DNA of 33,883 bases from Candidatus Nealsonbacteria bacterium RBG_13_42_11. Its GTDB lineage: Bacteria; Patescibacteriota; Minisyncoccia; Minisyncoccales; RBG-13-42-11. The notes beneath the pieces were generated by a model. It was not told the origin of the DNA and did not search any database. It was given only the letters and a program-made list of their open reading frames with translations. The DNA is taken from contig MHLY01000003.1 of assembly GCA_001821455.1 (NCBI GenBank), positions 10,994 through 44,876 of the forward strand, in the 5' to 3' direction. Both the position numbers and the translations under genes were made by a program. Below, in pieces: positions 1,537 to 28,327 of the stretch (position 1 is its first letter; each line of letters begins with the position of its first letter).

Positions 1537-4119
1537 TCATTTGTCAATTGAATGAAAGGCAACCAATAACGCCCCGGGTCCGGTATGCGTTCCCACGACA
1601 GGTGAAACGGAAGCCACAAAGGAAACTTCTCTTCCCGGCTTTTTCTCCAATTCATTTTTAAGATCCTCGGCGGTTTTTAAGTTATCGGCGTGAGCGATGG
1701 CTATTCTTATTTTTTCCCCGACCGCTACTCTGTCAATTTCTTGGGCTAAAATTTTAGCGATATTTTTGCCGAACCTTACCCCCAAAAACTTGGCTTCGCC
1801 GTCTTTTACAACGACTAAGACGCGGATTCCCATTTTTTGCAAAAAAACAACCGGTTTAATAAATATTTTTGGCAGTTTAAACCTTCCGCCTTGCACCACA
1901 TATCTAAAATCGTCAATGCAGGCCAGCAGGGAAACTTTGGGAGAGAATCGCTTTAAATCCTCAACGATTTCTTCCGTTGTTTTGCCCTGGGAGATTAAAT
2001 TCTGAGCCCGTAGAGCAATCAAGCCCTCGGCAACTTCGGCAGTAAAGCAATCGAAAACAAAAATATTCAGTTTGGCCGGTTTTTTAAAAATGGAACGGGC
2101 AATCCGGGCTGAACTGTAAGCGCCCGAGAGTTTTGAGGAAAGCGTGATTACTAAAATCTTTTCAAATTTATCAAAAGCCCTTTGATAGGCAGAAAGAAAT
2201 TCCTTAAAAGAGGGAGCGGAAGTGGTGGGTAAGGGTTGGCCTGATTTAATGGCTTCTCTCATTTTGAGGTAAATTTCTTCTTTTGAGTTAATGATTTCTC
2301 CGTCAGGAAATCTTGTGGTAAATGAAACTTCTTCTATATTATGTTTTTCTAAAAATTCCTTTGGCAGATCGGCGATCTGATCAACCACCAGGCCGAGGGG
2401 CTTTTTTTCTATTTTCTTCATTTGCGCCTCCATATCTTCAACGCGAAATTCAATTTCCGGAAAATCTTCAAACTTATTTTTAATCACGCCGGGCTCGTTG
2501 GTGTGAATATGAATTTTTACTTTATCTTCTGATTCAATCATTTCCAAACTGTCTCCCATTAAAGAAAGTTCTTCCTTTATCTTTTCGGGGTTGGGCCCTC
2601 CTTCTTTTTTAAAACTGAAAACGATTTCGTATCTGTATTTTAACGGTTTTCCCGTTTCCGGCTGGATAATGGGCTCCGTCACTTCAACCTTGGAATTAAT
2701 AGGTATGCCTTTTAAACTTTCGATCCAGGCCTCCAAAATTTTCAAAAAACCCAGGGCGCCGGCATCAACCACGTCATTCTCTTTCAAAACCTTTAACTTT
2801 TCTTTTGTTTCTTTCAGCGCCACTTCGCTTACTTTATACGCTTCATCCAAAACTTTAATGATATTTTTTTCTTTTTGCGTTCTTGCTATTTCAAAGGCCT
2901 TTTCTCCGGCAGCTTTGATCGTATCTAAAATAGTTCCTTCAACCGGCTGGGCAATAGAGTCCCTAGCTGCCTTAATGCCTCTTTTCATCGCCAAGGCCAA
3001 ATGAAAAGCATTAATGGTGTCTAAGTGCTTAATTCTGTCTAAAACTTCAATAAAATAGCCGGTGCAAATCATTCCGGCATTGCCTCGGGCATTAATCATG
3101 GCTGCATCTTTGATATCTTCAGTTAATTCCCGCAGGTTGGAATAATTTTTTGAAGAAATGGTTCCCTCAACGCCAAGCAGGGTAGCGGCTAAATTATAGC
3201 CCGTATCCTTGTCAGCCACCGGGAAAACATTGATTTTATTGATTTCTTCCTGATGGATGACGATTTTTTTTGAGGCCGCCAGCATCATTTTTTTAAAATC
3301 TTCAACCGTAATTTCCGTCACCACTTTTTCTGAGGACGGGAAAAGCATATTTATCGGTTTTTTTGCCATTTTTACTCCGAATTTCGCCGCTCTCCAGCCG
3401 ATTTTTGAAGGAATAATAATGGGGGCGGCCAGAGGTTTCATTATTTTCGTCATGCGGCTGGGATTGTTTTTTTCTTTTTCTATAATTCTCTTAATTCTAA
3501 AATTAAAAAGCGCCTCATTATTATCAAAAATGAGGCGGTTGAAAAATAAAGCAAATTTTTTCTCCGAGGTTTTTAATTCGCTGATGGGGCTCAATCTTTT
3601 AACAAAAATGGGGGCCAAAGAGAGAAGGGTGAAAAAGCCTGCGATTTCAAATTGGCCGAATTTCTTAGAAAGAAAAACTGCCGTAATTAAAAACAAGATA
3701 GTGCCGATGGAAGCATTCCAGATGATCGCCAAAGCAATCAGGGGGATGATTGAATAAAGCAGAATCAAAGGAGACAGGGCCAAAAAGGCACCGATAAAAG
3801 TAGCGATGCCTCTTCCTCCGGAAAATCCCAAAAATAAAGACCAGTTATGGCCGATAACGGCTGCAGTTCCTGAAAAGATCTGGATCTCAAAAGGAAGTCC
3901 CAATCTTTGGGCTCCGGACACGGCTAAATACCCTTTCCCGACATCCAAAAGACCGGTTAAAATTCCCTGCCACTTGCCGACATTTTTAAAAACATTGCTG
4001 CCGGAAGTTTTTTTCCAGCCCACCTCTAAAATGTTTTTGCCCGAAAATCGGGAAATTACGTATCCGAAAGGAATTGAACCCAGTAAATAACTTATAATTA
4101 TCCAGAAAATTCCTGTCAT
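1537..4119 (-). CDS. plsY: Tripartite fusion: PlsY acyl-phosphate:glycerol-3-phosphate acyltransferase (aa 1-~195) + FakA-like Dak2/DhaL module (aa ~270-575) + DegV/FakB-type fatty-acid-binding domain (aa ~578-860)
   Basis: Single uninterrupted 860-aa ORF. The N-terminus (MTGIFWIIISYLLGSIPFGYVISR...SGSNVFKNVGK...GKGYLAV) is PlsY-like with multiple TM helices. The middle carries the Dak2 signatures INVFPVADKDTGYNL and VVDAGALGFLKILEAW plus the FakA-middle-like MGDSLEMIESEDKVKIHIHTNEPG. The C-terminus is DegV-like (LGLVVDQIADLPKEF..., LPTTSAPSFKEF, ITLSSKLSGAYSSARIA). Confidence 0.8.
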   Translation of the reverse strand: MTGIFWIIISYLLGSIPFGYVISRFSGKNILEVGWKKTSGSNVFKNVGKWQGILTGLLDVGKGYLAVSGAQRLGLPFEIQIFSGTAAVIGHNWSLFLGFSGGRGIATFIGAFLALSPLILLYSIIPLIALAIIWNASIGTILFLITAVFLSKKFGQFEIAGFFTLLSLAPIFVKRLSPISELKTSEKKFALFFNRLIFDNNEALFNFRIKRIIEKEKNNPSRMTKIMKPLAAPIIIPSKIGWRAAKFGVKMAKKPINMLFPSSEKVVTEITVEDFKKMMLAASKKIVIHQEEINKINVFPVADKDTGYNLAATLLGVEGTISSKNYSNLRELTEDIKDAAMINARGNAGMICTGYFIEVLDRIKHLDTINAFHLALAMKRGIKAARDSIAQPVEGTILDTIKAAGEKAFEIARTQKEKNIIKVLDEAYKVSEVALKETKEKLKVLKENDVVDAGALGFLKILEAWIESLKGIPINSKVEVTEPIIQPETGKPLKYRYEIVFSFKKEGGPNPEKIKEELSLMGDSLEMIESEDKVKIHIHTNEPGVIKNKFEDFPEIEFRVEDMEAQMKKIEKKPLGLVVDQIADLPKEFLEKHNIEEVSFTTRFPDGEIINSKEEIYLKMREAIKSGQPLPTTSAPSFKEFLSAYQRAFDKFEKILVITLSSKLSGAYSSARIARSIFKKPAKLNIFVFDCFTAEVAEGLIALRAQNLISQGKTTEEIVEDLKRFSPKVSLLACIDDFRYVVQGGRFKLPKIFIKPVVFLQKMGIRVLVVVKDGEAKFLGVRFGKNIAKILAQEIDRVAVGEKIRIAIAHADNLKTAEDLKNELEKKPGREVSFVASVSPVVGTHTGPGALLVAFHSIDK

Positions 4120-4133
4120 TTGATTGTTCTGTT

Positions 4134-4159
4134 AAAAAACGGCATTTTTTAAGTGCCGT
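4134..4159 (-). terminator. Rho-independent terminator-like hairpin between tRNA-Ala and the plsY-fusion start
   Basis: Minus-strand RNA reads ACGGCA-CUUAAAAAA-UGCCGU followed by UUUUU. This is a 6-bp stem with a 9-nt loop, 15 nt upstream of the ATG at 4119. Confidence 0.45.
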
Positions 4160-4165
4160 AATTTA

Positions 4166-4193
4166 ATTATATCAGAATTGACAGTCAAGGCAA
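4166..4193 (-). promoter_or_regulatory. Candidate sigma-70 promoter for the plsY-fusion gene (extended -10)
   Basis: On the minus strand: TTGCCT (4193..4188), a 16-nt spacer, then TGaTATAAT (-10 at 4171..4166). The predicted start would fall at the 5' arm of the hairpin at 4159. Confidence 0.35.
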
Positions 4194-4246
4194 TTACGTC
4201 AATCTTCTCGCCTCTAATCCCGGTTTCTTTTGTAGACATAAAACAG

Positions 4247-4317
4247 TGGACTCACCGGGAATTGAACCCGGACCTCGGCAATGCGAATGCCGCGTAATGC
4301 CGTTTTACTATGAGCCC
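4247..4317 (-). tRNA. tRNA-Ala (anticodon CGC), no encoded CCA
   Basis: Hand fold of the reverse complement: GGGCTCA TA GTAA AACGGCA TTAC G CGGCA TTCGCAT TGCCG AGGT CCGGG TTCAATT CCCGG TGAGTCC A. The cloverleaf is complete, the G3:U70 alanine identity pair is present, and the anticodon loop is TT-CGC-AT. Confidence 0.9.
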
Positions 4318-4319
4318 GT

Positions 4320-5210
4320 TTATTCGGCTGGCGCCCAGCCCAGCGCCAAGGAGTCCTGGCCCAAAATGGAACCGATAACATTATCAATCAAGCTTACGGA
4401 AACCACTTCAACGTTTTCCAAATTCTTTTCAATCATTTCTTTTAATTTATTGGCTCTTTCTATGTTGTCTCCGTGGGCGATAGTTACCCTGATTTTTTTG
4501 CCGTTTTTCCTTAAATCTTTTGTTTTGTTTTCCAGTTCCCGGAATAAAGCCGTGGGAATGTCTTTTGCGCCGATTTTTATACCTGCGGGGCCGATCTTTC
4601 CTTCTTTTATTTCGAGCATAGACCTCAGGCCGATTTTTTGGGCTTTTCTCATCCAGTTAGCCACTGTCGGTGATATTCGGCCTGAAAACTCTATTCTTTT
4701 CGGGTCGTCCAGAAAAGCGTAAAGGTGAGAATGATGAGTATAATCTTCTATCTTTTTTAAGATTTCTTCAACGGACTGGCCGCTTTCCGCTAATTCAGCG
4801 GCTTTTATGACGACGAGCCCTAAAGAAGCTGTTCCGTTCAAAGAATCAATTACAAAGATACTGTTTCCTTTTTCTCCCATGAATTTTTTCGCCTGGCAGC
4901 CGGAATTATATGTACCGGAGTGCTTTGAGGTGATGGTAAGACAAATGATTTTCTCAAACTTTTCCAAATGCGTCTGGAAAATATCCACAAATGCTTTGGG
5001 AGAAGGTTGGGAGGTTTTGGCAAAAGATTTATCGCCCTTCTTTTCCAGTTCCCTGATTTTTTGAAAAATGTTTTCACCGGGGATTGCTTCAATTTCCGGC
5101 CAAGAAACATTAAGGGGAACTATTCCTATATCATATTTTGTAATTATTTCTTTTGGCAAATCGCATCCTTCGTCGGAAACTATGCCGATTGGTTTTTTAT
5201 CATTCATCAT
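4320..5210 (-). CDS. DegV family fatty-acid-binding protein (FakB-like)
   Basis: 296-aa ORF with DegV hallmarks: IGIVSDEGCDLPKEIITKYDIGIVPL, KTSQPSPKAF and ITSKHSGTYNSGCQA. The stop lies 2 nt before tRNA-Ala. Confidence 0.85.
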   Translation of the reverse strand: MMNDKKPIGIVSDEGCDLPKEIITKYDIGIVPLNVSWPEIEAIPGENIFQKIRELEKKGDKSFAKTSQPSPKAFVDIFQTHLEKFEKIICLTITSKHSGTYNSGCQAKKFMGEKGNSIFVIDSLNGTASLGLVVIKAAELAESGQSVEEILKKIEDYTHHSHLYAFLDDPKRIEFSGRISPTVANWMRKAQKIGLRSMLEIKEGKIGPAGIKIGAKDIPTALFRELENKTKDLRKNGKKIRVTIAHGDNIERANKLKEMIEKNLENVEVVSVSLIDNVIGSILGQDSLALGWAPAE

Positions 5211-5231
5211 ATATATAAATTAATAATAATG

Positions 5232-5302
5232 TCGGGGTGCTGGGAATTGAACCCAGACCGCAGAGTCCCGAACCCTGTATACTGCCGTTATACTACACCC
5301 CG
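5232..5302 (-). tRNA. tRNA-Pro (anticodon CGG), no encoded CCA
   Basis: Reverse complement folds as CGGGGTG TA GTAT AACGGCA GTAT A CAGGG TTCGGGA CTCTG CGGT CTGGG TTCAATT CCCAG CACCCCG A. The acceptor stem has 7 bp and the T-loop is TTCAATT. Confidence 0.85.
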
Positions 5303-7451: not shown

Positions 7452-7523
7452 GCCCCCGTGGCGTAATGGATAGCGTAATGGCCTTCGAAGCCTTGGGTGG
7501 GGGTTCGAGTCCCTCCGGGGGCA
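7452..7523 (+). tRNA. tRNA-Arg (anticodon TCG), no encoded CCA
   Basis: GCCCCCG TG GCGT AATGGATA GCGT A ATGGC CTTCGAA GCCTT GGGT GGGGG TTCGAGT CCCTC CGGGGGC A. The cloverleaf has one U-U mismatch in the anticodon stem. The T-loop is TTCGAGT. Confidence 0.85.
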
Positions 7524-7528
7524 CAAAT

Positions 7529-8011
7529 ATGAAAAACAAAAAATCAAAAAACAAAAATCAAAAAATATTTTTAATGGTTTTGGTGGTCGGATTTTTTTTA
7601 CTTTCGGCTAATCAGATTTTAGCTGCTTGCCCAACCGGCATTGTTCCTTGTGGCGGCTCAGATTGCCTTTGTACTTTTTGTGATTTTTTCAAGCTTATTC
7701 ATAATATTATAAATTTCCTTCTGGTACCCTGCTCGCTTAATAGTGGTTTTGCCATTATTCCAACCATTGCCGTTTTATTGTTGGTTTTCGGCGGTCTTTA
7801 TTTGCTCATTTCCGGAGCTAGCCCGGAAATGTTCAGTAAGGCTAAGGCGATTATTACTGCCGCTATTATCGGTTTAGTAATTGTGTTTATTGCCTGGATA
7901 TTTTTAAATACATTTCTTGATTATATTGGAGTGGTGGAATGGACTGGCCTTACTGACAATCCAGATACTCCGGACGTAGTAGAAGGGTGGTGGCAAGTTC
8001 AATGTCGTTAA
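7529..8011 (+). CDS. Small membrane pilin-like protein (VirB2/TrbC-like, CPR-type T4SS pilin fold), stand-alone paralog
   Basis: ORF 7448..8011 trimmed to the ATG at 7529, because the longer ORF starts with TTG inside tRNA-Arg. The protein has a Lys-rich N-terminus and signal/TM segment, a Cys cluster CPTGIVPCGGSDCLCTFCDFF, and two TM helices around GGLYLLISGASPEMFSKAKAIITAAIIGLVIVFIAW. It ends in EGWWQVQCR. Confidence 0.65.
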   Translation: MKNKKSKNKNQKIFLMVLVVGFFLLSANQILAACPTGIVPCGGSDCLCTFCDFFKLIHNIINFLLVPCSLNSGFAIIPTIAVLLLVFGGLYLLISGASPEMFSKAKAIITAAIIGLVIVFIAWIFLNTFLDYIGVVEWTGLTDNPDTPDVVEGWWQVQCR

Positions 8012-8054: not shown

Positions 8055-8127
8055 GCCCTGCTAGCTCAATTGGTAGAGCAGAGGACTCTTAATCCTTTGG
8101 TTGCAGGTTCGAGTCCTGCGCGGGGCA
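8055..8127 (+). tRNA. tRNA-Lys (anticodon CTT), no encoded CCA
   Basis: GCCCTGC TA GCTC AATTGGTA GAGC A GAGGA CTCTTAA TCCTT TGGTT GCAGG TTCGAGT CCTGC GCGGGGC A. The cloverleaf is complete. Confidence 0.9.
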
Positions 8128-8137
8128 CTAAAATAAT

Positions 8138-14565: not shown

Positions 14566-15597
14566 ATGTTTTCTTTAATTAATAAAAAACAAGGGGTAGT
14601 TTTATTCGCAATAGTGTTTATATTTGCTGGAATTTTTCTTTTTACAAATACGGTGAAAAGCCAAGACGAAAACGATGAAGAAGATACTAATAAATGCTTG
14701 GACTGGTCGTCATATTTTTCGAGCTCAGATTCCAGGTTGTCCAAAGAGGGTATCCAAAAATGTAAAGATAATTTTAGCGGAGTGGGACGCACTTATTCTT
14801 GGGAAATCGTAGAAGAAAGGGATTATTGCTACGACGTGGCAAACGGTGAAAGTTATTGCTGTCCGCTTTCGCCTTCTTGTTGTCCTGAGTGCATCATTCC
14901 TACGCCACCTGCACCCTCCCCGCCCCCCACACCAACCCCTCCACCAACAACATTAATAAAACCAACTATTATTTATCCTAAAGAAAATGCCCAGGTTTAT
15001 GCCGGTGAAATTGAACTTAAATGGAGCAATACCGGGGCAGCTTTTTATAAATATCACGTTGAAACCGGCGGTGAAATTAAAGAAGAAAAAACAATTGGTT
15101 ATTACGGTTCTAAAACAATTAATGATTTGGTGCCCGGGAATTATTCCTGGGCGGTTTGTTCCTGCAATGATACAACAGGTGAAAACTGTAATTGCAGCGA
15201 TTTAACAACGTTTCAGGTAGTTTTTGCACCAGCTGGCTTTTTCGGCGGTATAGTTCCCTGTGGCCGGAAATACGATGATCCAAACACGCCGCCACCTCAA
15301 AACGAAAGCGTGCCTTGTGAATATAAGCATGTTTTTTTACTCCTTAAAAATATACTTGATTTTATTTTATGGCAATTGGGATTAATTGTTTTGGTTTTAT
15401 TAATTTTAGCTGTTGGTGTAATTTATTATTTCTCAATGGGTGCCCCAAGCACGATGGTAGGAGTAAAATCAATTCTAAAATCAGCTGGGATCGGTTACGG
15501 AATCATGTTTTTGGCCTGGCTATTTATTAATCTGATTTTATCCCTTCTCGGCTACCAAATCAGCATTTTTGGCCGCTGGTGGCAAATACCTTTTTAA
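14566..15597 (+). CDS. Pilin-domain fusion protein: signal/TM, Cys-rich module, Pro-rich linker, Ig/Fn3-like module, C-terminal VirB2-like pilin domain
   Basis: 343 aa. The linker is PTPPAPSPPPTPTPPPT. The C-terminal domain GGIVPCGRKYDD...VPCEYKHVFLLLKNILDFILW plus two TM helices and the ending GRWWQIPF parallels the pilin at 7529..8011. Confidence 0.6.
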   Translation: MFSLINKKQGVVLFAIVFIFAGIFLFTNTVKSQDENDEEDTNKCLDWSSYFSSSDSRLSKEGIQKCKDNFSGVGRTYSWEIVEERDYCYDVANGESYCCPLSPSCCPECIIPTPPAPSPPPTPTPPPTTLIKPTIIYPKENAQVYAGEIELKWSNTGAAFYKYHVETGGEIKEEKTIGYYGSKTINDLVPGNYSWAVCSCNDTTGENCNCSDLTTFQVVFAPAGFFGGIVPCGRKYDDPNTPPPQNESVPCEYKHVFLLLKNILDFILWQLGLIVLVLLILAVGVIYYFSMGAPSTMVGVKSILKSAGIGYGIMFLAWLFINLILSLLGYQISIFGRWWQIPF

Positions 15598-15599
15598 AA

Positions 15600-15615
15600 T
15601 TTGTGGTATAATAAA
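15600..15615 (+). promoter_or_regulatory. Extended -10 promoter element TTTGTGGTATAATAAA upstream of the VirB6-like gene
   Basis: TGgTATAAT (hexamer 15607..15612) lies 18 nt upstream of the ATG at 15631. An identical 16-mer recurs at 22113..22128. Confidence 0.5.
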
Positions 15616-15630
15616 ACAACGTTCAATTAA

Positions 15631-23649: not shown

Positions 23650-24104
23650 GGACGGGGCTTAATTAGTACGCTTCGTTCGGGTTCTTCTCCGATACTTTCC
23701 GTAATAACGTCACTTCGGTCGGCGAGTTCCAAGTGAATAATTCTTCTTTCGTAGGCTGGCATAGATGCCAGCTGTTTTTCTTTTTTAGTCAGCGACACTT
23801 CGTCAGCAGTCGTTCTGGCCATTTCTTTTAAATACTCAGTTTTTTTCTTCTTATAATCATTAATATCCAAATCAATAAAAAACTGTTCTTCAATTTTTTT
23901 TCTCAAAATCGCTTTCAAAAGATGCTGAATTTCAATTAAGGTCTGGCCGCCTTCCCCGATCAGGATCTGGGGCTCTTCGGTTTTTAAATTAATGTGTATA
24001 GCTCCGTCTTTTTCCGACAAAAGACCGATCTCAACTAAAAAAGTTGTTTTTTGAAAAAAATCTTCAACGGTTTTTTTAATTAATTCAAGGTTTTGCGGGC
24101 TCAT
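23646..24104 (-). CDS. jag: Jag/KhpB-type RNA-binding protein (KH + R3H domains)
   Basis: 152 aa with an R3H region (YERRIIHLELADRSDVITESIGEEPERSVLIKP). It sits downstream of yidC, the canonical arrangement. Confidence 0.8.
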   Translation of the reverse strand: MSPQNLELIKKTVEDFFQKTTFLVEIGLLSEKDGAIHINLKTEEPQILIGEGGQTLIEIQHLLKAILRKKIEEQFFIDLDINDYKKKKTEYLKEMARTTADEVSLTKKEKQLASMPAYERRIIHLELADRSDVITESIGEEPERSVLIKPRP

Positions 24105-24828
24105 AAGGTTTTGCTTTTGGTTTTAGTATTAAATATTGCTGCAAAATGGAAAATAAGGAAGTGACTATCCAGTAAAGGCCGATGGCTGAGGGCAGTTTCC
24201 ATAAAAACAAAACTGTGAAAATCGGGAAAAAATAAAGCATTTGTTTTTGCATGACGTCTGAAAATCGGGACATCTGGTCGGTTTTTTTGTCTGTTTTTTT
24301 ATTTTTAGCCATCATCATTTTGGATTGGAAAAACTGGGTAAGACCGGCTAAGACCGCGAGTATCATATTGCCCTGGGCCAAATTAATTATTCCTAAAAAG
24401 CTGGGGTTAATCGTCCCGGGGTTGGGAATAAAACTGTAAAGCAAGCCCATGGCTTCGGGTCTCAGTCCCTTCCAAAAAACCTGGTAAAGAGCGATCAGAA
24501 CGGGTAATTGTATTAAGAGCGGCAAACAGCCTCCGAAAGGGTTAACTCCCTCTTTCTGATAAAGAGCCATTATTTCTTTTGTCTGTTTTTCCTTGTCGTT
24601 TTTGTATTTCTCCTGAACCTCCTGAATTTTGGGCTGAAGTTCCGACATCGCTTTCTGAGACTTGATGGATTTTATCATAAAAGGGTAGAGAACAACCCTA
24701 ATTAAGGCCGTTAAAACAATAATGGCTATCCCAAAATCATGGCCCGGCAGGTATTGGTAAAGAAAAACCAGTGCATTAAGCAGGGGTTCGTACAATATTT
24801 TATTGAAAGCGGAAATGAAAAAGTCCAT
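24085..24828 (-). CDS. yidC: Membrane protein insertase YidC (short, Gram-positive-like form)
   Basis: 247 aa. The segments KSQKAMSELQPKIQEVQEKYKNDKEKQTKEIMALYQKEGVNPFGGCLPLLIQLPVLIALY are typical of YidC/Oxa1. Confidence 0.9.
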   Translation of the reverse strand: MDFFISAFNKILYEPLLNALVFLYQYLPGHDFGIAIIVLTALIRVVLYPFMIKSIKSQKAMSELQPKIQEVQEKYKNDKEKQTKEIMALYQKEGVNPFGGCLPLLIQLPVLIALYQVFWKGLRPEAMGLLYSFIPNPGTINPSFLGIINLAQGNMILAVLAGLTQFFQSKMMMAKNKKTDKKTDQMSRFSDVMQKQMLYFFPIFTVLFLWKLPSAIGLYWIVTSLFSILQQYLILKPKAKPYEPAKP

Positions 24829-24838
24829 TTTAAAAAAA

Positions 24839-25054
24839 TTACGGCAAATCTACGCCGCCCTTATTAAGAGAATTGCATCGCAATATTCTCCAAATTCCTT
24901 TTGCTATTCCTTGAAATATCCCGTATTTTTCAATCGCCGAAACTGTGTATTCTGAACAGCTCGGATAAAAACGGCAGTTAAATCCTAAATTTGGCGAAAT
25001 AAAAATTTGGTAAATTTTAATTAATTTCAGAAAAAGCTTTTTAATCATTTTCAT
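24839..25054 (-). CDS. yidD: Membrane protein insertion efficiency factor YidD
   Basis: 71 aa. [34 protein letters not shown] is the YidD signature. Confidence 0.9.
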
Positions 25055-25392
25055 TTTACGATATTTGCTCTCTTAAGCAGCGCGGCAATCGTTTTTTCAA
25101 TTTCGCGAAAATCCCTTTTTTCAATTCCCGGAATCGCAATAAATAAATTGTCCGTGCCGGTCTTTATGGTTTTAAATTTTAATCTTACTGCTTCTCTTAA
25201 CTTTCTTTTGATTTTATTTCTTAAGGTGGATTTTTTTGATACCTTCTGGGAAACAATAAAACCGCAGCGTGCTTTTCCCAAGTCATTCTTAACCGTTTTT
25301 AAAATTAAAAAGTCTTCCTTTAGCCCCTTTCCTTTTTTAAAGACGTTGTCTATGTCCTTTTTTTGCCTGAGCCGGTTGTTTTTTGGTAGCAT
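25051..25392 (-). CDS. rnpA: Ribonuclease P protein component
   Basis: 113 aa, basic. It has [21 protein letters not shown]...[27 protein letters not shown] and lies between rpmH and yidD. Confidence 0.9.
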
Positions 25393-25411
25393 TTTAAAAC
25401 CGCTTCCGTTT

Positions 25412-25546
25412 CTAAACCGTAAGATTCTTTCTGCCCTTGCCTCTTCGTCTGGCTAACGTCCTTCTCCCGCCCACAGTTTTCATTCTTCTTAAAAATCCGT
25501 GGGTTCTTTTTCTTTTTTTGCTTTTTTTATGATAAGTGACTGACAT
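25412..25546 (-). CDS. rpmH: 50S ribosomal protein L34
   Basis: Not in the ORF track (44 aa). Hand translation from ATG (25546..25544) gives MSVTYHKKSKKRKRTHGFLRRMKTVGGRRTLARRRGKGRKNLTV with stop TAG at 25414..25412. It occupies the canonical position upstream of rnpA and divergent from dnaA. Confidence 0.9.
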   Translation of the reverse strand: MSVTYHKKSKKRKRTHGFLRRMKTVGGRRTLARRRGKGRKNLTV

Positions 25547-25696
25547 ACTGTTTTTTATCTTACCTTAATAATTCGGAAAGGTCAATTTCACAGGTTTTCC
25601 CCAGAATATCAACAAAATTTTGGCTTTGTGCGGGGTTTTACTTTTCCATTCCCCATAGTATAATGAACTGGCTGATAAAATAGATTTTGTATTTTC
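25547..25696. other. rpmH-dnaA intergenic region: candidate oriC segment / dnaA promoter
   Basis: TTTTCCCCA at 25595..25603 and ATTCCCCA at 25648..25655. A TATAAT hexamer at 25659..25664 lies 32 nt upstream of the dnaA ATG, with no good -35. Confidence 0.4.
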
Positions 25697-27046
25697 ATGA
25701 TAAAAGAAGAATTGTGGCAAGCCGTGCTTGCCCAGGTCCAACTTAACATCTCCCAGGCCAATTTTGCCACTTGGTTTAAAGACACCGGAATCGTTTCTTT
25801 TAAGGATGGGGAAATTATGGTTTCAGTGCCCAACTCTTTTGCCAAAGAATGGCTGGAAAACAAATATGGGAAAACTATTTTTAAGATTTTATACAATTTA
25901 GATAAAGAAATAAAGGAAATAAAATATTCTGTTGGAAAATCCGAGCTGAAAACCCTGAAAAGAGTCCAGGTTTCCGTCCCGACTGCCGGCCAGCTTGATT
26001 TTGAGGAGTTTAAGGTTGATAAAGAAACGAATCTTAATCCTCGTTATACTTTTGAAAACTTTATTGTCGGTTCTTTTAATGAATTGGCTCATGCTGCCGC
26101 ATTAGCGGTCGCAAAAAAACCGGGCTTAGTTTACAACCCTCTTTTTGTTTATGGGGGCGTGGGAGTGGGCAAAACCCATCTTCTCCAGTCCATCGGCAAT
26201 GCGGTAATTAAAAACTCTCCCCAAAAAAAAGTAAGCTATATCGCTGCTGAAAAATTTACTGCCGGCGTTGTTTCATCAATTAAAAATCACAGCATGGAAA
26301 ATTTTAAAACAAAATACCGGGCAATTGACATTCTTATTTTGGATGACGTTCAGTTTTTAGCCGGCAAGGAAAAAACTCAGGAAGAATTTTTTCATACTTT
26401 TAACTCTTTATATGAAAACAATAAACAAATAATTTTATCTTCGGACCGGCCGCCAAAGGCCATACCCGCTCTGACGGAAAGATTGCGCTCGCGCTTTGAA
26501 GGCGGGATGATTGGGGACATCGGCTACCCCGATTATGAAACAAGAGTAGCTATTTTGAAGGCAAAAAGCCAGGAAAAAGGAGTTAATTTCCCCGACGACA
26601 TCTTGGATTATGTTGCAACAAACATTCAAAGAAATATCCGCGAGTTGGAAGGCGCTCTAAACAGGCTGATTGCCTATCAGCAGATAAACAAACAGTTGCC
26701 CAATCTGGAAGTGGCGAAATCTCTGCTAAGAAGCTTGTTTTTGTCTCCCAACAAAGTGGCCAACCCTAAAAAAATCATTCAGGTAGTGGCTGAGTTTTAT
26801 GACTTAAAAGAAAGGGACATTCTTTCAATCTCAAGAAAAAAAGAAGTGGTAAAACCCCGCCAAATTGCCATGTTTTTATTAAGAGAGGTTTTAAAAAGTT
26901 CCTATCCTTTTATTGGGAGAAAATTCGGGGGAAAAGATCACACCACCGCAATTCATGCCTGTGAAAAAATTGCCAGGGAGTTGGGGAATGACGAAAATCT
27001 TACCAATGAATTAGACCTAATAAGACAGAGGGTTTTCAGTGTGTAA
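25697..27046 (+). CDS. dnaA: Chromosomal replication initiator DnaA
   Basis: 449 aa with an AAA+ core (NPLFVYGGVGVGKTHLLQSIGN, ILILDDVQFL, SSDRPP). The C-terminal DNA-binding domain has VKPRQIAMFLLRE and FGGKDHTTAIHA. Confidence 0.95.
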   Translation: MIKEELWQAVLAQVQLNISQANFATWFKDTGIVSFKDGEIMVSVPNSFAKEWLENKYGKTIFKILYNLDKEIKEIKYSVGKSELKTLKRVQVSVPTAGQLDFEEFKVDKETNLNPRYTFENFIVGSFNELAHAAALAVAKKPGLVYNPLFVYGGVGVGKTHLLQSIGNAVIKNSPQKKVSYIAAEKFTAGVVSSIKNHSMENFKTKYRAIDILILDDVQFLAGKEKTQEEFFHTFNSLYENNKQIILSSDRPPKAIPALTERLRSRFEGGMIGDIGYPDYETRVAILKAKSQEKGVNFPDDILDYVATNIQRNIRELEGALNRLIAYQQINKQLPNLEVAKSLLRSLFLSPNKVANPKKIIQVVAEFYDLKERDILSISRKKEVVKPRQIAMFLLREVLKSSYPFIGRKFGGKDHTTAIHACEKIARELGNDENLTNELDLIRQRVFSV

Positions 27047-27178
27047 AATGGGGAAAAATTAAAAACCTTAAAAATCCCCATTCTTTCTACTGTTCATCCT
27101 TTGGTAATTTTGTGCGAGAAGCGGGAGAAAATAAAACTTTTCCCCAACGCTAATAACATTAATTTAAATATTAAATAA
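27047..27178. other. dnaA-dnaN intergenic region: candidate oriC segment with box-like repeats and an AT-rich stretch
   Basis: TGGGGAAAA (27049..27057, the reverse complement of TTTTCCCCA), AAATCCCCA (27072..27080) and TTTTCCCCA (27138..27146). An almost pure A/T run follows at 27151..27178, immediately before dnaN. Confidence 0.4.
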
Positions 27179-28327
27179 ATGAAAACCGTAATTTTGAAAG
27201 AAAAATTAAAAGAGGGAATTAATACCGTGGAAAGAATTTCTGAAAAGTCTTTAACTTTACCGATTTTAAATAACGTTTTAATTTCAACGGAAAAAAACTT
27301 TCTCAACCTGACTACGACCGATTTAGAGGTCGGAATTAACTGGTGGTCTTTAGTTAAAACTGAAAGAGAGGGGAAAATCGCCGTACCCTCCCGCGTTTTA
27401 TCTAGTTTTGTTAATTTCCTGCCGGATAAACCCGTAGAACTGGAAGTAAAAGATTTAACGTTAAAAATCAAATGCGACGATTATCAAACTTCAATTAAGG
27501 GGTTTAATCCGGAAGATTTCCCGATCATTCCAAAGGTGATAAGCAAAGAAAAAGTTGTTATTAAAAGCCAGGTTTTCTGCCAAAACCTGAGCCGGGTTGT
27601 TGATGTGGCCAGTTTTTCATCAACCAAACCGGAAATTTCCGGAATTTACTTTCTGTTCCAGAAAAACCTGATCGTGATGGCGGCTACAGACAGTTTTCGC
27701 CTAGGTGAAACAAAGATCTTTTTAGAATCCCCTAAAAATAACTTAACGAAGGATTATTCCTTAATTCTGCCCCAAAAGGCAGCTAAGGAAATTATTAATA
27801 TTTTGGGCGGGGGAAGCGGAGATTTAACCATATGTTTTTCACCGAACCAGATTCTTTTTGAAACGGGCCTGACGGAAACATCTCACCCTAAAATCCAGCT
27901 TGTTTCCCGGTTGATTGAGGGCGACTATCCGAACTACCAGGAAATTATTCCTAAAAAATCGGAAACAAAAATTCAGGTTTCTTTAAATGAGATTATTAAC
28001 CAGATTAAATTATCCTCGCTTTTCAGCAGCAAAATTAACGAGGTAAAATTAAAAATTGATCCCAAAAAGAATCAATTAAATATTTTCAGCCAAAATCCCG
28101 ACGTGGGAGAATATAATAGTTTCTTAAACGCTAAAATTGACGGCAAGCCCTTTGAGATTTCTTTTAACTACAGATTTTTATTGGACGGATTGTTAAACAT
28201 CGGTCTGGGCAGAGAAAAAGAAACCGAAGTGATTTTAGAATTAAACGGTTCAGATAAGCCCGGAGTAATAAAAGCGAAAGGAGACGAATCTTATCTTTAT
28301 TTGGTGATGCCGATAAAAACTAATTAA
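27179..28327 (+). CDS. dnaN: DNA polymerase III beta sliding clamp
   Basis: 382 aa with a typical DnaN N-terminus (LKEKLKEGINTVERISEKSLTLPILNNVLIS...LNLTTTDLEVGI). It is immediately downstream of dnaA. Confidence 0.9.
   Translation: MKTVILKEKLKEGINTVERISEKSLTLPILNNVLISTEKNFLNLTTTDLEVGINWWSLVKTEREGKIAVPSRVLSSFVNFLPDKPVELEVKDLTLKIKCDDYQTSIKGFNPEDFPIIPKVISKEKVVIKSQVFCQNLSRVVDVASFSSTKPEISGIYFLFQKNLIVMAATDSFRLGETKIFLESPKNNLTKDYSLILPQKAAKEIINILGGGSGDLTICFSPNQILFETGLTETSHPKIQLVSRLIEGDYPNYQEIIPKKSETKIQVSLNEIINQIKLSSLFSSKINEVKLKIDPKKNQLNIFSQNPDVGEYNSFLNAKIDGKPFEISFNYRFLLDGLLNIGLGREKETEVILELNGSDKPGVIKAKGDESYLYLVMPIKTN

Follow-up and report, generated by a model that had tools for sequence, protein, structure and literature searches.

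We describe a gene that joins, in a single chain of 860 amino acids (aa), an acyltransferase module of the PlsY family, a Dak2 kinase domain, a FakA-like middle domain and a full-length DegV domain. The gene lies in a 33,883-nucleotide stretch of the assembly of Candidatus Nealsonbacteria bacterium RBG_13_42_11 (GCA_001821455.1, contig MHLY01000003.1, positions 10,994 to 44,876), which as a whole is referred to here as the window and in whose coordinates all its features are given. We consider it probable that this gene encodes a membrane-anchored, one-polypeptide module combining fatty acid activation with the acylation of a lipid acceptor, a reading that draws on the architecture of the protein, its conservation, the retained catalytic and ligand residues of its kinase and DegV parts, and the linkage to phospholipid genes.

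The CPR (candidate phyla radiation, also called Patescibacteria) accounts for a large share of bacterial diversity, and the origin of its membranes is unresolved. Probst et al. 2020 (ISME J, PMC7242380) reported that CPR bacteria have PlsY and PlsC and no PlsX, and explicitly asked where their acyl-phosphate comes from. The host of the fusion is an ultra-small CPR bacterium and belongs, by that report, to a PlsX-less group, and the fusion suggests how such organisms make acyl-phosphate for their membrane lipids. The FakA/FakB system and Dak2-DegV fusions are already known, and the new element is the conserved fusion of a single-chain kinase with PlsY; in searches of the full-text literature we found no description of the three-way PlsY fusion, nor of what the single-chain kinase does in CPR.

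Domain architecture and conservation of the fusion gene

The fusion gene occupies positions 1537..4119 of the minus strand, as delimited by the list of open reading frames (ORFs), the Pfam and NCBIfam domains and the collinear homologues described below. Its product consists of the PlsY-family module (residues 1-200), a linker (201-267), the Dak2 domain (268-470), the FakA middle domain (494-569) and the DegV/FakB-like domain (576-860). In Pfam, G3P_acyltransf (PF02660) matches residues 9-168 (E 8.8e-31, 107.6 bits against a cut-off of 24.1), Dak2 (PF02734) residues 300-466 (E 4.8e-27), FakA-like_M (PF21645) residues 494-569 (E 1.2e-12) and DegV (PF02645) residues 576-855, with profile positions 3-277 of 280 covered (E 1.9e-46, 159 bits), and all four matches are well above the gathering scores. 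A preliminary description, made from the sequence alone, had proposed exactly these domains within one ORF, and the junctions that it placed near positions 3530 and 2390 coincide with residues ~200 and 576. The NCBIfam models agree at the family level (TIGR00762 DegV, 184 bits against a cut-off of 99.7), but none of the equivalog cut-offs of PlsY, FakA and FakB1 is reached by the protein. On the coding strand the fusion gene is immediately preceded by a free DegV paralogue of 296 aa (4320..5210, minus strand; ORF list and Pfam DegV, E 1.6e-52) and, as also described earlier, by an intervening tRNA-Ala (CGC) gene found with ARAGORN (4246..4317, minus strand).

A homologue search among 5.8 billion proteins, clustered at 90% identity, returned more than 118 clusters with the identical four-domain order, at 53-91% identity over 99-100% of the query, and the fusion is thus widely shared among relatives. 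The homologues are 814-920 aa long, each with the same four precomputed Pfam domains, and are drawn from JGI, ENA, NCBI and Logan assemblies; those with a name are 'glycerol-3-phosphate acyltransferase' from Pacebacteria/Paceibacterota, Parcubacteria or Patescibacteria metagenome-assembled genomes (MAGs). When the homologues are compared with the window protein, identity averages 67% for the PlsY module, 75% for Dak2, 51% for the FakA middle domain, 64% for DegV and 52% for the linker, and from these values all modules appear to be under broadly similar constraint. Residue counts for the family given below refer to an alignment of 119 fusion-family sequences. One further homologue (P0130, 631 aa) has the PlsY, Dak2 and FakA middle domains and no DegV match in its last ~95 residues, which could mean that the gene call was cut short or that the protein naturally exists without the fused DegV.

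A long ORF of this kind could in principle arise when assembly or annotation merges neighbouring plsY, fakA-like and degV genes, and other lineages indeed have the modules side by side as separate genes (loci L012 and L027, see below). We nevertheless regard such an artefact as extremely improbable, as the same collinear protein recurs in more than 118 clusters from all four collections, a protein 90% identical to that of the window (P0002) is present on 13 contigs from different sequencing runs, the PlsY module comes first in the fusion and the kinase first in the split loci, and a family-specific linker is conserved. Given the collinear clusters and the 13 independent contigs, an assembly chimera or a frameshift can be excluded for practical purposes.

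The predicted kinase and fatty acid-binding domains

The linker (residues 201-267; 3319..3519, minus strand) was delimited by the family alignment and by low values of the predicted local distance difference test (pLDDT) in the AlphaFold (AF2) model, which has a mean pLDDT of 82 over the whole protein. With pLDDT below 50 at residues 222-263 the linker is predicted to be flexible, and it carries a partly conserved basic amphipathic segment (KPLAxPIxxPxKIGWxxAKFGxKxAKKP) that is kept at the N-terminus of P0120, a relative without the PlsY module.

The ATP-binding kinase domain, of Dak2 or FakA_N-like type (residues 268-470; 2710..3318, minus strand), was identified by PF02734, by alignment to FakA_N and by Foldseek. 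In the alignment to FakA_N of Streptococcus suis and Staphylococcus aureus its NVFPVADKDTG stands opposite NVFPVPDGDTG, and ARGNAG, PVEGTIL and DAGALG can likewise be followed. The family shows little or no variation in the Mg2+ and nucleotide motifs D303-K-D305-T306-G307, R345-G-N, P392-V-E-G-T and D452-A-G, and the model of the domain matches FakA_N bound to ADP-Mg (8vit/7rzk) with a target-normalised template-modelling score (TM-score) of 0.95 and a root-mean-square deviation of 1.4 A (Foldseek). The catalytic residues of the kinase part are retained.

The FakA middle domain (residues 494-569; 2413..2640, minus strand), supported by PF21645 and by alignment to 7w7h_A, contains the His-x-His pair, with H537 and H539 present in 119 of 119 sequences. 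In FakA, according to the papers from which we took the residue roles of this domain (PMC9136124, PMC10848957), a Cys-His-His cluster is formed by C240, H282 and H284 in S. aureus and corresponds to a zinc finger in S. suis. Two segments of low pLDDT, at residues 475-492 and 565-570, match the two flexible inter-domain tethers described for S. aureus FakA (PMC9136124).

The C-terminal part (residues 576-860; 1540..2394, minus strand) is predicted, from PF02645, TIGR00762 and Foldseek, to be a full-length fatty acid-binding domain of the DegV/FakB type. Its model matches fatty acid-loaded FakB1, TM841 and other DegV structures with target-normalised TM-scores of 0.84-0.87 over ~290 columns (Foldseek). 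In FakB1 the fatty acid carboxylate is held by a network of Thr62, Ser95 and His270, and Arg173 is catalytic (PMC8892158, PMC9136124); the equivalents in the fused domain are T633, conserved in 106 of 119 sequences (89%), S665 in 112 (94%), R746 in 117 (98%) and H845 in 101 (85%), with Tyr in 16.

In FakA the corresponding position is taken by FakA_C, which has a DegV-related fold, has lost three inserts and with them the fatty acid tunnel, and docks FakB (PMC9136124). On the fusion protein no match to FakA_C (PF13684) was found in Pfam at E<=0.01, and the YloV model TIGR03599 matches with its profile positions 1-358 of 530 only, a stretch that leaves out the FakA C-terminal domain; neither the FakA nor the YloV models reach their cut-offs. 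Taken together with the end-to-end DegV profile match and the full-length structural match to FakB1, this rules out that the C-terminal domain is a divergent FakA_C. Since an intact DegV takes the place of the degenerate FakA_C, the kinase part is best read as a single-chain combination of FakA (N and middle domains) with FakB.

The neighbouring free DegV shares 33% identity with the fused one and keeps the equivalents of T62, S95 and R173, with Ile at the position of H270. Its orthologues likewise keep these three residues, and every one of them has Ile, Leu or Val in place of H270. In the loci of relatives, which were viewed within +/-10 kb of each match, free DegV orthologues of 49-69% identity are neighbours of the kinase gene, fused or unfused, in L001, L006, L011, L015/16 and L025-27. 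These sequences mark the free protein as a conserved partner of long standing whose carboxylate site differs somewhat. The earlier proposal that it could supply a different acyl-chain specificity goes beyond these observations and names only one of several possible roles, which include a different ligand, the delivery of fatty acids in trans and docking on the fused DegV.

The last of these roles leads to another reading of the fused domain, in which it would act mainly like FakA_C, as a dock for a free DegV whose fatty acid is phosphorylated in trans, its own pocket being secondary or regulatory. The fused DegV indeed sits exactly where the FakB-binding FakA_C sits, in many lineages a free orthologue turns up alongside the kinase, be it fused or unfused, and the free protein keeps the catalytic Arg173 equivalent. 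We nevertheless judge a mainly docking role to be somewhat unlikely: the fused domain is of full length and has the tunnel-forming segments that FakA_C is without, the conservation of the T62, S95, H270 and R173 equivalents (85-98%) would be needless in a mere dock, the His of the carboxylate network is lost by the free DegV and not by the fused one, and many fusion loci are without any DegV gene within 10 kb. Docking and fatty acid binding by the fused domain itself are not mutually exclusive.

The PlsY-family module, its relatives and the proposed pathway

The N-terminal module (residues 1-200; 3520..4119, minus strand) is a seven-transmembrane (7-TM) acyltransferase module of the PlsY family and of a non-canonical subtype, as indicated by PF02660, a phmmer match to the PlsY of Aquifex aeolicus (aaPlsY, 5xj5) and the AF2 model, in which it reaches a pLDDT of ~90. 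In the phmmer alignment residues 3-169 match aaPlsY with E 2.8e-21, gap-free through motif 1. The motifs of the module are G34-W-[RK]-K-T-S-G-S-N-V-F-K, G90-H-N-W-S, G101-G-R-G and K174-R-L-S-P...N194-R-L; residue equivalents were taken from the alignment to 5xj5 and from a MAFFT alignment with canonical PlsY, and residue roles in aaPlsY from the structure paper (PMC5700162). The residues that bind acyl-phosphate are kept: T41 is replaced by S41 in 118 of 119 sequences, a change that leaves aaPlsY half of its activity (PMC5700162), H92 is found as H91 in 115 of 119, and G101-G102-R103-G104 is invariant. The proposal that the fusion links the producer and the consumer of acyl-phosphate holds at the level of domain architecture, the consumer being a member of an acyl-phosphate-consuming family. 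By its scores the module can be placed in PF02660, at a level where orthology to a characterised PlsY is not established.

In aaPlsY, motif 3 comes right after the last helix, TMH7, and lines the cytoplasm-facing pocket for glycerol-3-phosphate (G3P). As the C-terminus of PlsY is therefore cytoplasmic, a cytosolic fusion at this end is topologically sound. The invariant residues of the module cluster in the three canonical active-site loops and, as the motifs that replace the canonical ones are themselves invariant across the family, the site is under selection and yet not canonical. We also considered that the module might be a degenerate anchor, which we judged unlikely given the position of the invariant residues in the three catalytic loops. 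The subtype marked by W35 comprises 24 representative clusters at E<=1e-30 in an exhaustive profile-free search, namely the fusions and stand-alone orthologues of ~220 aa that share the motif GW[RK]K[TN]S[GA]SN. A wider non-canonical subfamily (GGRG; KRL...NRLxFD) takes in Dehalococcoidia proteins annotated as PlsY, which make up almost the only cluster with a name among the non-canonical representatives.

Most of the loci viewed have the fused arrangement, and the local synteny is conserved in the order CCA-adding enzyme ... (UPF0102) ... fusion, NusA, H+-translocating pyrophosphatase (H+-PPase), ClpP. The corresponding order in the window is CCA-adding enzyme, methyltransferase, tRNA-Pro (CGG; 5231-5302, minus strand, ARAGORN), free DegV, tRNA-Ala, fusion and NusA. 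The fusion of L015/16 has as its neighbours a CarS-like/CdsA gene, a cytidine diphosphate (CDP)-alcohol phosphatidyltransferase gene and a free DegV, and in L015 the UPF0102, CDP-alcohol transferase and CarS-like genes occupy the position of the tRNA-Ala. Split forms also occur, with the modules at syntenic places or next to each other: in L012 a 589-aa Dak2-M-DegV gene is followed after 2 nt by an orthologous 221-aa gene of the PlsY type, the reverse of the order in the fusion, in L027 the kinase gene is followed by a PlsY-family gene 4 nt downstream, in L013/L014 the PlsY-type gene stands without the kinase, in tandem with a second PlsY paralogue, and in L019 the kinase stands alone (P0120) with the family-specific linker still attached. 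The tandem PlsY-family genes of L013 (4463-8256) and L014 (1642-5644), from Nealsonbacteria/Parcubacteria MAGs, are mutually divergent, one having GTGNVGAMNVQR/GGKA and the other being the orthologue of the module of the fusion, and directly upstream of the pair there are genes for a biotinyl-carrier-like protein of 138 aa, a BirA-like ligase of 175 aa and a carboxyltransferase (PF01039) of 515 aa.

An unfused Dak2-M-DegV protein of ~595 aa is very common in Patescibacteria, with 4655 matches at E<=1e-10, of which the best 120 are all Dak2-M-DegV; the names given among these 120 are 'DegV family protein', one of them from Nealsonbacteria. The unfused kinase is ~40% identical to the kinase part of the fusion. 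In L025-L027 it lies in a lipid gene cluster with free DegV, CarS-like, thiolase-like and ketoreductase (KR) genes, together with a CDP-alcohol phosphatidyltransferase gene in L026 and L027, a PlsY-family gene in L026 (canonical) and L027, and FabA/Z-like, FabK-like and PlsC genes in L025 and L027. This linkage to lipid genes supports a role of the kinase in phospholipid synthesis.

The genes found near the unfused kinase of L025 (15430-17797), L026 (9350-14585) and L027 (11224-17791) include thiolase-like, KR/FabG-like, FabA/FabZ-like, NMO/FabK-like, BioY and PlsC genes, and in these same intervals neither acyl carrier protein (ACP) nor PlsX is visibly encoded. Such a gene content gives a hint of partial, perhaps ACP-independent fatty acid elongation in CPR lineages that are usually called unable to make lipids. 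With KR, FabA/Z-like, FabK-like, thiolase-like and PlsC genes clustered around the unfused kinase of relatives, scavenging need not be the only origin of the fatty acids. Within the 34-kb window itself there are no genes of type II fatty acid synthesis (FASII), for PlsX or ACP, or for a second, canonical PlsY. A fully canonical PlsY (GSGNIGGTNVLR, GGKG, HRENLQR) is encoded in the cluster of the unfused kinase in L026 (2357-2977), a Nealsonbacteria MAG, and CPR consequently have at least three distinct PlsY subtypes. Directly upstream of the unfused kinase there is further a gene for a conserved 217-aa multi-pass membrane protein with a weak match to an MscS-type family (PF05552) in L025 (7346-7999), L026 (6905-7558) and L027 (7344-7997), which is absent from the window.

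In the mechanism that we propose, the C-terminal DegV (FakB-like) domain would bind a free fatty acid from the inner leaflet of the membrane, and the Dak2 and middle domains would phosphorylate it while it is bound there. The two flexible tethers and the linker of ~65 residues would hold the kinase on the cytoplasmic C-terminus of the 7-TM acyltransferase, so that acyl-phosphate would leave the kinase at the membrane, next to the PlsY-family module tethered there, whose family is the one that uses acyl-phosphate. This module would most probably acylate glycerol-phosphate to lysophosphatidic acid, the first phospholipid step in an organism without PlsX, and CdsA-like and CDP-alcohol transferase enzymes would act downstream. 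The adjacent free DegV may deliver fatty acids in trans.

Several observations weigh against this proposal. We infer the enzymatic activities, the acyl acceptor, the channelling and the source of the fatty acids, and the predicted template-modelling score (pTM) of the fusion model is 0.47, too low for the domains to be placed with confidence relative to one another or for the model to lend channelling any structural support. Only about one in three of the examined loci has the free DegV. In the middle domain the equivalent of the zinc-finger Cys (Cys240/244), assigned by motif inspection (YRYE versus YGYC), is Glu498; Glu is the commonest residue there in the family (101 of 119 sequences, 85%), followed by Asp (11) and Cys (7). 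The PlsY module reaches 88.4 bits against the TIGR00023 equivalog cut-off of 137.2 and is below the cut-off of each other NCBIfam model of the PlsY type as well. Half of the canonical G3P pocket is replaced: S35 of the G3P clamp is W35 in 119 of 119 sequences, and H177 and N180 are R175 and P178, each also in 119 of 119, although the motif-3 alignment crosses an insertion of ~15 residues ahead of the retained N194-R195-L196, which makes these equivalences less certain than those in motifs 1 and 2. Mutations of S35, R45, H177 and N180 severely reduce the activity of aaPlsY, and K104R lowers it to ~25% (PMC5700162). Fusion-bearing genomes might, in addition, also hold a canonical PlsY, as the related lineage of L026 does. 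The remaining changes in the module are conservative: R45 is K45 (100 Lys and 16 Arg among the 119), and K104 and S142 are R103 and T140 in all 119.

These features of the pocket raise the possibility that the module is not a G3P acyltransferase, and that it either serves another acceptor (lysophosphatidate at sn-2, glycerol-1-phosphate (G1P) or a different polar or membrane molecule) or is mainly a membrane anchor or acyl-phosphate receiver. Such a reading would account for the invariant W35, R175 and P178, the motif-3 insertion and the score below TIGR00023, and it fits with the small size and CPR restriction of the W35 subtype, the tandem of a W35-type gene with a second PlsY paralogue in L013/L014 and the canonical PlsY of L026. 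It would also fit with the reported lack of ACP and PlsX in CPR, which leaves PlsC without its usual donor, but PlsC itself is reported from CPR (PMC7242380) and is present in the related clusters. The basic residues K37, K45, R103, K174, R175 and R195 remain and are compatible with a phosphorylated acceptor, and an anchor would hardly explain invariant residues in catalytic loops. The Dehalococcoidia proteins of the wider subfamily are annotated as PlsY, and may not be the only PlsY of their genomes. On balance we regard a function other than G3P acylation as unlikely. Even so, with the clamp residues replaced (S35W, H177R, N180P), the acyl acceptor can only be proposed, and the earlier suggestion that fatty acids pass straight into lysophosphatidic acid is an inference as well.

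A further, quite improbable extension would be that the remodelled pocket acylates a substrate other than G3P, for example lysophosphatidate at sn-2 or G1P, and that CPR without PlsX and ACP build diacyl lipids entirely from acyl-phosphate by means of PlsY paralogues and the single-chain kinase. If true, this would amount to an ACP-independent pathway of phospholipid acylation.

Returning to the combination of fatty acid activation and acylation as the probable function, the fusion provides a Rosetta-stone link that ties widespread proteins, under-annotated as 'DegV family protein' or 'glycerol-3-phosphate acyltransferase', to the acyl-phosphate step. If this function is true, there would be a concrete path by which free fatty acids become phospholipids in CPR, the debated catalytic geometry of Fak could be studied on a natural one-chain complex of kinase and substrate, and the fusion would bear on how acyl-phosphate passes between enzymes, a question raised with the structure of PlsY. 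The FakA_C of Firmicutes would then look like a degenerate descendant of a substrate-binding DegV domain.

Other features of the window and comparison with known systems

The 5' leader of the fusion gene contains two elements on the minus strand that are weak consensus matches only, a promoter-like TTGCCT-16-TATAAT whose second hexamer is preceded by TG (4193-4166) and, just before the start codon, a GC-rich 6-bp hairpin (ACGGCA..TGCCGT) with a T-run (4159-4134), which could be the terminator of the tRNA-Ala or a leader element. Four tRNA genes are interleaved singly among the protein genes of the window, namely those for Ala (CGC), Pro (CGG), Arg (TCG; 7452-7524) and Lys (CTT; 8055-8128). A type IV secretion system (T4SS)-like cluster typical of Patescibacteria extends over 14566-23649 and includes two large proteins that end in T4SS_pilin domains, a protein of the PrgI family, a TraG/VirB4-like P-loop ATPase and several ORFs without a Pfam match (884, 149 and 209 aa); a further pilin-like ORF is located at ~7530-8011. 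The gene set of a replication origin follows in 23646-28327, with rnpA, yidC and Jag/KhpB on the minus strand and dnaA (25697-27046) and dnaN (27179-28327) on the plus strand, whereas the minimum of the cumulative GC skew and the switch of the coding strand are both near 7.4 kb, ~18 kb from dnaA.

With the FakA/FakB system of Firmicutes (S. aureus, S. suis; 7W7H, 7RM7, 6W6B, 5UTO) the fusion protein shares the Mg/ATP motifs of Dak2, the His-x-His pair of the middle domain, the flexible inter-domain tethers and a binder of DegV fold with the T62/S95/H270 network and the catalytic R173. It differs in that FakA and FakB are two proteins and the fusion is one chain, with the binder covalently in the place of FakA_C, in that the zinc-finger Cys of FakA is Glu, and in scores far under the equivalog cut-offs of FakA and FakB1. 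The FakA and FakB of Firmicutes are moreover soluble and their PlsY is a separate membrane enzyme, whereas here the kinase is anchored to the membrane enzyme.

The module and Aquifex aeolicus PlsY (5XJ5) have in common their membership in PF02660, the layout of the helices, the GGxG phosphate hole, H92, T41 (as Ser), D59/K62 and the N-terminal LLGSxPFG motif. The differences in the module are the changes S35 to W, H177 to R, N180 to P, K104 to R and R45 to K, the insertion of ~15 residues in motif 3 and, for the whole protein, a C-terminal extension of 660 residues.

Generic Dak2-DegV fusions have been mentioned (Erni et al. 2006, as cited in bioRxiv 10.1101/2021.02.16.431466). The closest parallel in arrangement is the unfused Dak2-FakA_M-DegV protein of Patescibacteria (~595 aa), which has the same three modules in the same order, the same Glu for Cys and the same neighbourhood of lipid genes. 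It is without the N-terminal PlsY module and the family-specific linker, and its PlsY-family gene is separate, being in some cases the very next one.

Dihydroxyacetone kinases (DhaK/DhaL) also pair a substrate-binding domain of the EDD fold with a Dak2 nucleotide domain, and in some of them Dak1 and Dak2 form a single chain. Their substrate is dihydroxyacetone, whereas that predicted for the fusion is a fatty acid held in the DegV tunnel, and relative to them the fusion has the reversed domain order, an extra middle domain and a membrane module.

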